From: a virus
Lineage: Duplodnaviria > Heunggongvirae > Uroviricota > Caudoviricetes
IMG/VR virus record: IMGVR_UViG_2526164601_000042
Length of the DNA stretch: 39,549 nt
Direction: 5' to 3' (one strand)
A program made the position numbers. Shown in pieces: positions 24,001 through 27,000 of this stretch; positions within the stretch are counted from its first letter, which is position 1, and every line of letters begins with the position of its first letter.

Positions 24001-27000
24001 TGCCCTGACATCTCCCCCCCCTCCACTAAATGAGGCCGCCAGCGGGCCAGAGGCTGTGCTGGATTTTGGCCATTTTACCCCGTTGCGCGCGCTCGTATCC
24101 CCGCCACGCCTGCCCGCTTTATGTAGTGGTTTTCATGCACCTGCATGATCTACGCAAAAGCCCACCAGTTCTGGCGGGCCTTAGCAAAAACGATCCTCAA
24201 ACAATCATGCGATCTCATGCGGCATAGACATGCACTACAGAGCTAACGCCTCGCAAGGGTTCGTTGTTCAACCTTGCTGACGCCAGAAACAAGTTCAGAC
24301 GCCAGCAACGTTTCTTAATGCAGCCAGCTGTCGTCTTCCCACACCTTCTGCATAATTTTCATCACTTGCTTCCTTTCTTCGTCCAGTTGCAGTCCGGTCA
24401 GTTCCACACCGTTAGAGCTACCTTTGCGGATACGAATTACCGTTTTGGGATACAGGGGGCGCAGATTACGGTAAAGCTCGGATTCAAGGGCGTCCAGGGT
24501 AGACTGGCTAATCTTCTGCTCTTTATCGATCATTATTTCAATGCGCATAAAAGTCACCTCAGCTGATGACATCCATTGAGCGGTTGTATTCGTGGCTTCT
24601 GATTTTTGCCATGAGTTCATCAGTCAATTCAGAAACCCACTGCAGAGCCAGTCCCTTCTCTTCATCACTACACTCACTGGCCGCTACAAGCTTAAGAAAA
24701 AAATCAATGCGCTGGAGCTTCAAAGACTCCAAAAAATAGTCCTGCATCTTTCCTCCTATGACACCACACGCAATACTGTATGCATAACCACTGTTTATAA
24801 TTACAGTATATAATAATCTTACTGATGTAAAACGTTTTTTTACGTTTATCAGCCTGATATGCCTGGTATTATTAAGAGCACGAATGGTTAACCATCGTAA
24901 TTAATACAGGTTTCGCCACTTATCATCTTCCTGCAAACGCTGGTTCCGATAGAAGATACGCAGGCCTGCTCCTGACGGAATACTGCCGCCGCGAAGGAGT
25001 AAATCGACCTCTTTCTCGCTACCATCAAACCCTCTGGACTTCAGCTCATACACGAGCTGCTGTCGCTGATGGTCTGTAATTCGCTGTTTGTAGTCTTTAC
25101 GCCGTTTCGGTTTAACCAGGTGTAACCTTGCTGCCAGTTCCCGGCGTTCTTTTTTGCTCATACTGTGCAGGTAATCGTGCAACTCCTTGTCATCCATGCG
25201 GGTGATATCCGTTCTGGTATCCCCATCAGCTGATTTGTCTTTCCCTTGTTGGTTCAAATTTTCAGCAAGGGGACAGTTATTGCCACGAGTCCAAGGGGCG
25301 CAAGCGCCCTGGTCGGCTGCCGCCTCCTGAACGTCAACGGCCTTACGAACCATTTTCCACTTCACTGCATGAGTGCAGATCTTACCCTCTGCAATGGGTG
25401 ACCAGATGCCATAAATACGAATGCCGTGATCGCCATAGGCGGTCGGCTCTTCGTTGATTTCATAAGCGGTTCTGATGAGGTGATATTTACGGGGAACCAG
25501 TACGCCGCCCTGCTTCATGATGTAGGTGGCAAAACAACCAGCATCAGCTGCAGCCAGAATGGCATCAAGGCGCGGGTTATCCAGTACCGGCGCACCTGCT
25601 TTTTTGTCACCCTGTTGCCTTGCCGCCTGACCAGCCAGCAATCGCAGTTCACGGTAAGCCTGACGCCCCGGAATGCCAAAGAAGCGGAATTGCTGAACAC
25701 GATGCAGAGACGCCCAGGCATTAACGTATTCAGCGTTATCACGCAGAGATTTACCCGTTTCCTTGCTGATCTCGCCAGCCAGACCACGCCCGTCAATGTT
25801 CTTACTGATGTATTTCGCGATGTAGCTAGTCGGCGTTCCTTTGCGCGGGTTTATCAACTCAGACTTAAAGCGTGGCCCCGTGTTATTACCCAGCTCCTCG
25901 CGGTCTTCACGGATAGCAAACTTACGCAACAATGCAGTAATGGCGCGGCGGTCTTTTTTGCGCATGAAACACAACAGGTGCCAGTGAACTGTGCCGTCAT
26001 GATGCGGCTCAGCCACCCGCACGCCATACCAGCGCAATCCGGCTTTGTGCATCGCCTTACGAAATGCAGCAAACATGCCGACCAGATAATCACTGCTTTG
26101 TCTTACCGTCGCATTTGTCCAGGTCGGGTTGGGCCTGCCGTTATTTAGCGTGGAATGGAAACGTGACGGACAGGTGATGGTGTAGAAAACGGCGCAGTCA
26201 CCGCGCATTTCCGCGATAAGCTCCAGACCTTTAACACAGGCCATCATCTCATTGCGGCGATGCGCAGGGTTGCTGCTGCTGGCGTTTACCACATCCTCCA
26301 TGTCCAGCGTGTCGCCGTCTTCGTTCACCAGTTCATGAGAACGGAAAAACTCCAGCGACTTACGGCGCTGCTCACGTTTATGCATCACGGCTTCATAGCT
26401 GACATAGGGAGATGCTTTTTTGCTGACCAGGCAAACAGCACGCAACTGCTCTTCCCGCCATTCACAACGCATCTTCCACAATTTCCGATACCACCAGTCG
26501 GCGCACAACATACGCGCCAGCGAACCCGGAATGAGTTCATAGGGCACGGGTTTACGGCGGTTTCTTTTCCGGCGGAGTTGCTCAAACGCAGGCGGTATGA
26601 CATCCAGTCGCAGGGTTTCTGCTGCCACCTTTTCCCATGTCTTGCGGATTTCTTCTGGCTTAACATCATCGGTGGCATACAAATCACCACAAGCGGCATC
26701 AAGACACATACTCATATGCGCAGCGACAAGAGTAGACAGGCGTTTCACCTGATCCTGACTCATTTCAGGCAAGATCAGCAGGCCGTCCAGCCCTTCATGG
26801 CTTGCCATAAAGCGAAAAGAAGTGGATAGCTGACTGTCGCGTACATGCTCCAGTCGTTCCAGACATGGCTTAATCGTCTCACGCAAATAGCGGGAATAAG
26901 CCTTTGGCCTGCCCAGGCTGCTGAAGTATTCAATACGTTGCATCAGCGGCTTGCTGATATGGGAAGGCTGGGCGTTAACGTCCGCCAGTATGACCATGTC

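Follow-up and report, generated by a model that had tools for sequence, protein, structure and literature searches.

We identified a two-gene unit on the minus strand of a 39,549-nucleotide stretch of caudovirus DNA (IMG/VR record IMGVR_UViG_2526164601_000042; hereafter, the window, meaning the whole stretch that was analysed). The unit lies between the replication endonuclease gene A and cos, as it does in phage 186, and encodes a 62-aa protein followed by a protein of the DinI family. Its features, from gene A toward cos, are as follows.

24901 to 27315, minus strand: replication endonuclease gene A (open reading frame; homologues are so annotated in related phages)
24826 to 24831, minus strand: TTTACA, the −35 element of the SOS promoter, the equivalent of p95 (read from the sequence and from conservation)
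24803 to 24808, minus strand: −10 hexamer TACTGT, which is bases 1 to 6 of the LexA box (read from the sequence and from comparison with 186 p95)
24789 to 24808, minus strand: predicted LexA (SOS) box TACTGTAATTATAAACAGTG, with its CTGT-N8-ACAG core at 24791 to 24806
24774 to 24793, minus strand: putative degenerate second LexA-like box CAGTGGTTATGCATACAGTA (read from the sequence)
24752 to 24757, minus strand: Shine-Dalgarno motif AGGAGG of the 62-aa gene, 4 nt upstream of the ATG at 24747 (conserved in alignment)
24559 to 24747, minus strand, including the stop codon: tumA-type antirepressor gene, 62 aa (assigned from the open reading frame and homology)
24315 to 24548, minus strand: DinI-family gene, 77 aa, the tumB equivalent (assigned from Pfam, phrog, and similarity to Tum)
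24274 to 24308, minus strand: hairpin with an 11-bp stem directly after the DinI stop codon, without a U tract (RNA fold)
24153 to 24182, minus strand: intrinsic-terminator-like hairpin GGCCCGCCAGAACUGGUGGGCUUUUGCG, a GC-rich 11-bp stem and then UUUU (RNA fold)
24092 to 24110, minus strand: cos cohesive-end region GGCGTGGCGGGGATACGAG (alignment with the 186 and PSP3 genome ends)

An earlier note on this DNA had described a two-gene operon next to cos, and both parts of that description hold. The 62-aa reading frame ends in TGA (24561 to 24559). After a gap of 10 nt comes the DinI-like frame, which has its own ribosome-binding site and most likely starts at the ATG at 24548, giving 77 aa; the two frames were confirmed, and the second carries a clear Pfam DinI domain (below). 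As for cos, when the linear genomes of 186 and PSP3 are compared with the window, their right ends (...CATAAAGCGGGCA) align to its minus strand up to position 24111.

The interval from the DinI stop codon to cos measures about 205 bp and contains two hairpins. The first is possibly a partial terminator or a processing site; in relatives that have no DinI gene, the same GCTGGCGT...ACGCCAGC hairpin lies directly 3' of tumA. The second, cos-proximal hairpin likely marks the end of the SOS transcript, judging from its predicted fold. Note that a generic terminator scan did not report it. Searching the window by tblastn with 186 orf97 and with STM2726 of the Salmonella prophage Fels-2 gave no match to either. 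These two genes are both 732 bp long, but STM2726 was rejected as an orf97 homologue on BLASTP, which shows no similarity between them.

The predicted LexA box and SOS promoter

The core of the LexA box, CTGTTTATAATTACAG at 24791 to 24806, is the sole CTGT-N8-ACAG in the 39.5-kb window. Taken as a bare 16-mer, this pattern would arise by chance at 0.54 copies per window, and at least one copy appeared in 41 of 100 shuffles. Such numbers lend something to the reading that the match is fortuitous and that the operon is under some other control, such as that of CI or of read-through out of gene A. The complete 20-mer, TACTGTAATTATAAACAGTG, argues against that reading, because it has a perfect core and shares 16 of its 20 positions with the consensus TACTGTATATATATACAGTA; none of 300 dinucleotide shuffles reached this quality. 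Conservation points the same way. Among 31 related loci for which upstream sequence was available, spanning many Enterobacterales genera and sharing this promoter and box design, 25 have a perfect core and the remaining 6 a single mismatch, with CTG-N10-CAG retained in all 6; box position and core are kept even though the 8-bp spacer varies from locus to locus. Furthermore, the operon architecture agrees with that of the characterised p95 of 186. Finally, in DuoHS, a prophage of E. coli HS with almost the same promoter and box as the window, mitomycin C induction is abolished by either a tum deletion or a non-cleavable lexA(Ind-) allele (PMC12055606, Nat Microbiol 2025). A fortuitous box is therefore an explanation to which we give practically no weight.

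We instead read the box as the operator of a σ70-type SOS promoter located, on the minus strand, just after gene A and composed of TTTACA, a 17-nt spacer, and TACTGT. Measured against the consensus TATAAT, the −10 hexamer is weak, with three of six positions in agreement, and this is why a generic promoter scan found no promoter at the SOS operon. We recognised it by comparison with 186 p95, whose annotated −10 is also TACTGT and overlaps the LexA site in the same way, and by its conservation: TACTGT is retained in 29 of the 31 related loci, and 28 have a TTTACA- or TTCACA-like −35 that precedes the −10 by 16 to 18 nt. In an alignment with DuoHS, Fels-2, SEN8, and ST13phi12.1, the −35 hexamer TTTACA is invariant. 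The earlier proposal that a LexA box overlaps the promoter of the operon agrees with these data, as the box itself supplies the −10, is unmatched in quality among the shuffles, and is conserved across the 31 loci. The predicted LexA operator can thus be placed over the promoter of the putative antirepressor gene.

The second, degenerate box has an intact right half (ACAGTA) and a left half that reads GTGG, and it overlaps the first box by 5 nt. In a MAFFT alignment, the single box of 186 and that of PSP3 fall at the position of this second box, 24774 to 24793. In three of the related loci (L007, L021, and L022), the first box is followed 15 bp downstream by another that is near-perfect, GTGTATAT..ATACAG. 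The arrangement differs from that in 186, where one LexA box is found 18 nt from the start codon; in the window, 41 nt separate the good box from the ATG, and the degenerate one sits between.

The 62-aa protein and its DinI-family partner

The 62-aa protein matches phrog_698 (E = 5.9e-38). It is identical at 62 of 62 residues to the product of ECHS_RS04495, the tum gene of prophage DuoHS in E. coli HS, and 97% identical to STM2728 of Fels-2. BLASTP gave zero alignments between the 62-aa protein and either 186 Tum or PSP3 TumA, and likewise zero between PSP3 TumA and 186 Tum. Because BLASTP found nothing between the 62-aa protein and Tum, a comparison of profiles was needed. We used HHalign to compare a family of 30 sequences of the 62-aa type with 113 Tum N-terminal sequences, and the family matched the N-terminal, non-DinI half of Tum at 96.8% (E = 2.9e-10, score 49.4). 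The scores of 100 column-shuffled controls were 9.6 ± 2.4, with a maximum of 18.9. The alignment pairs residues 4 to 44 of the family with Tum residues 4 to 44, at an identity of about 20% over aligned columns. PSP3 TumA also matched the N-terminal half of Tum by profile (85.5%, E = 5.8e-6). When the 62-aa protein and PSP3 TumA were compared directly, the match was weak (HHalign 12%, E = 0.0024) and its score of 18.4 lay inside the shuffle range; it has the same register around a Cys...ALxxI motif. The relationship between these two proteins would accordingly be transitive only, by way of the N-terminal half of 186 Tum.

An AlphaFold2 model of the 62-aa protein is a two-helix hairpin (pLDDT 87.6), and a Foldseek search of this model against the PDB returned generic helical hairpins only, none at E ≤ 0.001. 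A Pfam match to PPP1R21_C was discarded as a sub-threshold chance match (E = 0.095). The suggestion in the earlier note that the protein is a candidate antirepressor is strengthened by its profile homology to the N-terminal half of Tum and by DuoHS, where an identical protein is needed for induction. The genetic test of the small gene that the note had proposed is in effect available in the literature, since this identical protein is required for mitomycin C induction of DuoHS (PMC12055606).

The downstream protein is readily classified. It covers the whole 63-position Pfam model DinI (PF06183; E = 6.6e-23), where its 81.3 bits far exceed the gathering cut-off of 24.2. It also matches phrog_189, 'RecA filament binding protein DinI' (E = 1.5e-29), and is 41% identical to residues 71 to 145 of 186 Tum. 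DinI is the only domain that Pfam recognises in the two proteins of the operon, and in RefSeq the small ORF goes under the name 'hypothetical protein' in over 1000 genomes of E. coli. Both facts would suit an operon that is mainly a host-directed modulator of the SOS response, that is, a DinI 'moron' that tunes RecA, with the small ORF incidental. The distribution of the genes speaks against this. Related loci were gathered with the single 62-aa protein as the query. Of the 32 whose tumA is intact, 17 also have an intact DinI gene, 3 have a disrupted one, and 12 have none; the small ORF and the LexA box persist. The DinI partner, missing or damaged in 15 of these 32, is dispensable. The host-modulator view is also contradicted by DuoHS, where deletion of the small ORF alone abolishes induction (PMC12055606). 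We judge it very improbable.

Known counterparts of the operon

Phage 186 is induced through a LexA-controlled p95-tum unit and sequestration of CI (PMC7708051). The window resembles 186 in the location of the unit, in a −10 TACTGT supplied by the LexA box, in having homologues of both Tum halves, and in a CI of the 186 type; the earlier assertion that the unit follows the logic of the 186 SOS operon was upheld on each of these four points. Like the window, 186 also makes a separate DinI-like product, of 76 aa, via an internal start codon. The two differ in that 186 Tum is a single 146-aa polypeptide, whereas the antirepressor and DinI parts are not fused in the window. In addition, the SOS operon of 186 has orf97 downstream, and the window is without it.

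That the window has two separate genes is correct, but the novelty that the earlier note implied for this split layout does not stand. PSP3 likewise has two separate genes between A and cos, which are annotated as tumA (60 aa, 'UV induction of prophage') and tumB (a DinI homologue). The tum genes of Fels-2 and PSP3 were described as split by a stop codon by Lemire et al. 2011 (PMC3121763), who cite Bunny et al. 2002 for the split; in PSP3, antirepressor activity is carried by the upstream gene of the split pair (PMC3121763). PSP3 tumB is 71% identical in DNA sequence to the DinI-like gene of the window, while PSP3 TumA and the 62-aa protein belong to one kind of module but differ in sequence type. 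A literature search on 'TumA/TumB' retrieved unrelated papers only.

Fels-2 is close to the window across the whole unit, with 95.7% DNA identity and a DinI-like protein (STM2726.1) that is 100% identical. It departs from the window in its CI, which is 58% identical to the window CI, and in the 243-aa STM2726 that follows its DinI gene and is absent here. The lethality of lexA-null mutations has been attributed to Fels-2 in the literature. A study of the Salmonella SOS regulon (PMC8072944) used strain 14028, which is without Fels-2, and holds no data on the tum operon. DuoHS has the same gene order as the window (A, tumA, dinI-like), its tum being a 189-bp gene upstream of the DinI-like ECHS_RS04500. 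It differs in a CI that is 40% identical to the window CI and in two extra ORFs between the DinI-like and portal genes, where the window has none.

The operons of Gifsy-1, -2, and -3 (GfoA, GftA) also have a dinI homologue and, together with it under a LexA box, a small antirepressor that inactivates a non-cleavable repressor; their dinI homologue is dispensable for induction (PMC3121763). By this description, they are like the window in operon logic. Their gene order is reversed, however, with dinI first and then the GfoA or GftA antirepressor and irsA, whereas in the window the antirepressor gene precedes DinI and there is no third gene. The Gifsy phages are also lambdoid, with repressors of another family.

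The CI repressor and the predicted route to induction

The repressor gene lies outside the operon, on the opposite strand.

30114 to 30746, plus strand: CI immunity repressor, 210 aa (Pfam Phage_CI_repr, E = 1.9e-30, and Phage_CI_C, E = 3.5e-30)

The neighbours of this gene are an Apl/Cox-like gene, cII, and int, and its product is 30% identical to 186 CI (E = 1e-34). Pfam found no S24 peptidase domain in this CI, and so no self-cleavage domain of the LexA kind. All of the TumA-carrying phages examined have a 186-type CI without a cleavage domain. From its domain content, the cognate repressor appears to be a 186-type CI that would not be cleavable through RecA, and we presume it to be the target of the antirepressor.

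Across seven prophages, the antirepressor is 97 to 100% identical, and their CI proteins are only 40 to 58% identical to the window CI. The prophages that share this near-invariant TumA with divergent CI include DuoHS of E. coli HS, Fels-2, and several Klebsiella phages. Identity to the window CI is 40% for DuoHS, 44% for Kp4872-2, and 58% for Fels-2. Such a combination is unexpected for a highly specific pair of interacting proteins. The most conserved part of CI within the group is the N-terminal domain, which holds 36 of the 41 invariant columns. This DNA-binding domain contains a group-specific motif, FPA(D/E)W(V/I)I, which differs in the CI proteins of 186 and PSP3.

We conclude that the unit is, with high probability, the SOS induction module of a P2-like E. 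coli prophage of the Fels-2/186 type, in the split tumA/tumB form. During lysogeny, LexA of the host, bound to the box and −10, would keep the operon silent, and CI would repress the lytic promoter. Upon DNA damage, RecA-stimulated self-cleavage of LexA would free the SOS promoter. The 62-aa two-helix protein would then be made, bind CI stoichiometrically, and block its binding to its operators, which would release the lytic operon from repression. The 77-aa DinI-like protein, encoded on the same transcript, may bind RecA filaments and modulate the SOS signal, in a role that would be accessory and not essential.

Direct binding of CI by the 62-aa protein is proposed by analogy with 186 Tum, the only member for which it has been demonstrated (cited in PMC3121763 and PMC7708051). 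The 62-aa protein could alternatively be required for induction but act through Apl, CII, CI stability, LexA, or RecA, with no binding to CI. The low identity between the 62-aa protein and the N-terminal half of Tum leaves room for this, as does the DuoHS paper, which reports a genetic requirement and no biochemical target (PMC12055606); with near-identical TumA proteins paired to such different CI proteins, a target outside the variable parts of CI is also conceivable. On the other hand, the statistics for homology to the N-terminal half of Tum are solid, the accompanying repressors are consistently of the non-cleavable 186 type, and the conserved N-terminal domain of CI could serve as a common docking surface. 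We consider action without CI binding improbable and favor the direct antirepressor. A more specific version, that TumA of the Fels-2 type is an antirepressor of broad specificity that docks on the conserved N-terminal surface of CI, with the DinI partner optional, is a tentative proposal that may well prove wrong.

A LexA-controlled antirepressor module is the textbook alternative to repressor cleavage of the lambda type. The SOS operon of the window is confirmed as an observation, its earlier interpretation is supported, and it is already known. It does not extend what is understood of how prophages are induced, as the identical protein has already been tested genetically. There is value for annotation, given that the 62-aa gene goes by 'hypothetical protein', or wrongly by 'levan regulatory protein', in 1125 of 5426 complete E. 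coli genomes (about one in five), and is so labelled in most phage records too. It could be renamed a TumA-type antirepressor. If the broad-specificity proposal is true, induction of one prophage could spread to co-resident relatives whose CI is divergent, the kind of cross-induction that the Gifsy antirepressors bring about. The pairing of a near-invariant antirepressor with diverged CI proteins therefore offers a modest, testable lead on specificity and cross-induction among P2-like prophages.

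Promoter and LexA box of the SOS unit

The window holds a P2/186-like prophage (Peduoviridae), in reverse orientation around the SOS unit. This unit lies on the minus strand between replication gene A and cos. Its proximity to cos, proposed in the earlier note, is borne out by alignment, as the linear right ends of 186 and PSP3 (...CATAAAGCGGGCA) match the minus strand up to 24111. The two-gene operon is also present as described, comprising a 62-aa ORF and a DinI-family ORF 10 nt apart.

The SOS unit and its surroundings
24901-27315, minus: replication gene A (ORF)
24831-24826, minus: -35 TTTACA, 17-nt spacer to the -10
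24808-24803, minus: -10 TACTGT
24808-24789, minus: LexA box TACTGTAATTATAAACAGTG
24757-24752, minus: ribosome-binding site AGGAGG
24747-24559, minus: 62-aa ORF (tumA type)
24548-24315, minus: 77-aa DinI-like ORF
24308-24274, minus: hairpin without a U tract, 3' of the DinI-like ORF (RNA fold)
24182-24153, minus: GC-rich hairpin then UUUU, likely cos-proximal terminator (RNA fold)
24110-24092, minus: cohesive-end-like sequence GGCGTGGCGGGGATACGAG (cos), adjoining the aligned right ends of 186 and PSP3
to 23930, plus: end of portal gene Q

Ten consecutive C residues (ten G on the minus strand) occupy 24012-24021 of the plus strand, between the portal gene end and cos.

The window has one CTGT-N8-ACAG where 0.54 would be expected, so the bare pattern alone is no proof of a LexA site. 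The 20-mer TACTGTAATTATAAACAGTG has a perfect core and matches 16 of 20 consensus positions, and shuffling the window 300 times with dinucleotides preserved gave no site of equal quality. At 33 loci from different Enterobacterales species a relative of the 62-aa protein is encoded. Promoters were compared at 31 of these, leaving out L008 (contig end, upstream unusable) and L036 (tumA-like gene broken, box absent upstream). The core is perfect in 25 of the 31 and has a single mismatch in the other six, all of which keep CTG-N10-CAG, while the 8-bp spacer within the box varies freely. TACTGT is retained as the -10 in 29 loci, and a TTTACA- or TTCACA-like -35 at 16-18 nt spacing in 28. Such conservation is the more telling evidence that the box is real. 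The same design is annotated for p95, the tum promoter of coliphage 186 (-35 TTCACA, -10 TACTGT, LexA site beginning at the -10). The claim that the box overlaps the operon promoter therefore stands, with the box supplying the -10 as in p95. Note that a generic promoter scan did not pick up this promoter, because TACTGT matches TATAAT poorly.

A second, degenerate LexA-like box, CAGTGGTTATGCATACAGTA (24774-24793, minus), shares 5 nt with the good one. In the MAFFT alignment, 186 and PSP3, each with a single box, have it at this degenerate position, not at the good box. In three loci (L007, L021 and L022) a second, near-perfect box follows 15 bp after the first, and Pantoea/Erwinia relatives (L030-L035) have a single box 20-21 nt from the ATG, like 186.

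The two genes of the operon

Pfam assigns no family to the 62-aa protein, which falls in phrog_698, a PHROG without assigned function. BLASTP found no similarity to 186 Tum, the 146-aa LexA-controlled antirepressor, or to PSP3 TumA. We compared family alignments of 30 diverse 62-aa relatives, 113 Tum N-terminal-half sequences and 110 PSP3 TumA relatives. HHalign matched the 62-aa family to the Tum N-terminal half (96.8%, E 2.9e-10, score 49.4), placing residues 4-44 on 4-44. As controls, 100 column-shuffled Tum alignments scored 9.6 +/- 2.4 (maximum 18.9), and a reversed alignment 8.8. The profile match and these controls together mark the 62-aa protein as a divergent homologue of Tum's non-DinI half. 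By the same measure it is closer to 186 Tum than the named PSP3 TumA is (PSP3 TumA against the Tum half, 85.5%, E 5.8e-6; 62-aa family against PSP3 TumA, 12%, E 0.0024). AlphaFold2 models a two-helix hairpin (helices 2-23 and 28-61, pLDDT 87.6), for which a PDB fold search returned generic hairpins only.

The name 'levan regulatory (domain) protein', given to the gene in some phage and UniRef records, looks like a misannotation. In some gene calls its start is placed upstream, giving 84-106 aa and reading through the LexA box. Among relatives of the 186-type N-terminal half of Tum (set P0183-P0302), many are separate proteins of 63-78 aa that carry the name 'Tum protein'; splitting of tum therefore also arose, or was retained, within the 186 sequence type, besides the Fels-2 and PSP3 types.

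The 77-aa protein is, from its domain and family matches, a clear DinI-family member (Pfam DinI, E 6.6e-23, 81 bits against a cut-off of 24; PHROG 'RecA filament binding protein DinI'), and is 41% identical to residues 71-145 of 186 Tum. Its gene appears to be accessory. Of the 32 loci whose tumA-type gene is intact, 17 keep an intact DinI-like gene, three carry a frameshifted or truncated copy (L020, L023, L037) and 12 lack it; the LexA box is retained in all of these. A GCTGGCGT...ACGCCAGC hairpin directly follows tumA in L012, L024 and L038. Likewise, deletion of Gifsy dinI homologues by Lemire et al. (PMC3121763) caused no induction defect.

Between the post-dinI hairpin and the terminator, 24183-24273 is empty in the window. 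The corresponding stretch holds the 243-aa gene STM2726 in Fels-2 (L004 2165-2896), two ORFs in E. coli HS (L046 10166-12520), a UmuD-like ORF with a GFPSPAQDY motif in L021, and a probable DNA methyltransferase in L029; L031 is also among these loci. The stretch looks like a cargo insertion spot. Counterparts of 186 orf97 and STM2726 were not found in the window, and STM2726, considered as an orf97 homologue, is not homologous to it.

The CI repressor and its presumed antirepressor

The immunity region is laid out as in 186.

Immunity region
29207-29716, minus: cII
29750-29992, minus: Apl/Cox-like gene
30114-30746, plus: cI
30749-31765, plus: int

Directly 3' of int, a 401-aa ORF (31775-32980, plus) without a Pfam domain matches phrog_7835 (E 1.4e-198; function not annotated) and may be an att-proximal accessory or moron gene.

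CI has 30% identity to 186 CI (E 1e-34). Its domains are Phage_CI_repr and Phage_CI_C; an S24 peptidase domain was not found in it. Judged by its sequence, it is of the 186 type, would not be cleaved in the lambda manner and would need an antirepressor to respond to SOS. CI is the presumed target of the 62-aa protein.

Identity of TumA and CI to the window's proteins
E. coli HS DuoHS: TumA 100%, CI 40%
Fels-2: TumA 97%, CI 58%
Kp4865-2: TumA 98%, CI 57%
Kp4846-2: TumA 98%, CI 52%
Kp4872-2: TumA 98%, CI 44%
SEN8: TumA 90%, CI 51%
ST13-OXA48phi12.1: TumA 90%, CI 40%

TumA does not co-vary with CI in these prophages: where TumA is 97-100% identical, CI identity is only 40-58% (loci compared, L039-L044 and L046). 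By domain, for the prophages other than DuoHS, CI identity is highest in the N-terminal DNA-binding domain (57-65%), with 11-42% in the linker and 29-60% in the C-terminal domain. All eight CI proteins that occur with this TumA type share five residues (I16, A43, A53, W55 and I57) that differ in both 186 and PSP3 CI; an FPA(D/E)W(V/I)I motif contains three of the five. We hypothesize that TumA docks on a conserved surface of the N-terminal domain of CI and that it could also act on related prophages. The pattern suggests a broad-specificity antirepressor, with possible cross-induction.

Precedents and proposed mechanism

This system is already described at three levels: the family (186 Tum), the split variant (PSP3 tumA/tumB, Fels-2) and the exact protein (DuoHS tum). 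Induction of 186 through LexA-controlled p95-tum and CI sequestration is established (PMC7708051). At the same position, the PSP3 GenBank record annotates a 60-aa tumA ('similar to 5' end 186 tum; UV induction of prophage') together with tumB ('similar to dinI and 3' end of 186 tum'). According to Lemire et al., who cite Bunny et al. 2002, a stop codon divides tum in both Fels-2 and PSP3, and the antirepressor activity lies with the upstream gene of PSP3. The window's SOS unit is 95.7% identical to that of Fels-2 at the DNA level, and the 62-aa protein 97% identical to STM2728. In E. coli HS, ECHS_RS04495, a 189-bp 'hypothetical protein' gene between gene A and a DinI-like gene, encodes a product identical to the 62-aa protein at 62 of 62 residues; this is the tum gene of prophage DuoHS, and the promoter and LexA box upstream of it are nearly identical to the window's. 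After mitomycin C, neither lysis nor virion formation takes place when DuoHS tum is deleted or LexA is non-cleavable (lexA(Ind-)); this result (Phollow paper, PMC12055606, Nat Microbiol 2025) is decisive.

The proposal that the 62-aa protein is a candidate antirepressor gains from its profile homology to the Tum N-terminal half and from the requirement for an identical protein in DuoHS induction. The likeness to 186 SOS-operon logic likewise holds, with a p95-type promoter and LexA box, both Tum halves represented, and a 186-type CI lacking an S24 domain. The observation is confirmed and its interpretation supported.

From the sequence, its conservation and the DuoHS lexA(Ind-) phenotype, LexA on the -10-overlapping box would silence the operon. 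DNA damage would cause LexA to be cleaved, and tumA and the DinI-like gene would be transcribed. TumA would then inactivate CI and derepress the lytic operon; that the gene is required is shown for the identical protein, and direct CI binding is suggested by analogy with 186 Tum. The DinI-like protein, as a family member, may modulate RecA filaments.

The SOS unit is present in 1125 of 5426 complete E. coli genomes. The module is already known; its small gene is still labelled 'hypothetical protein' in RefSeq in the E. coli genomes that carry it.
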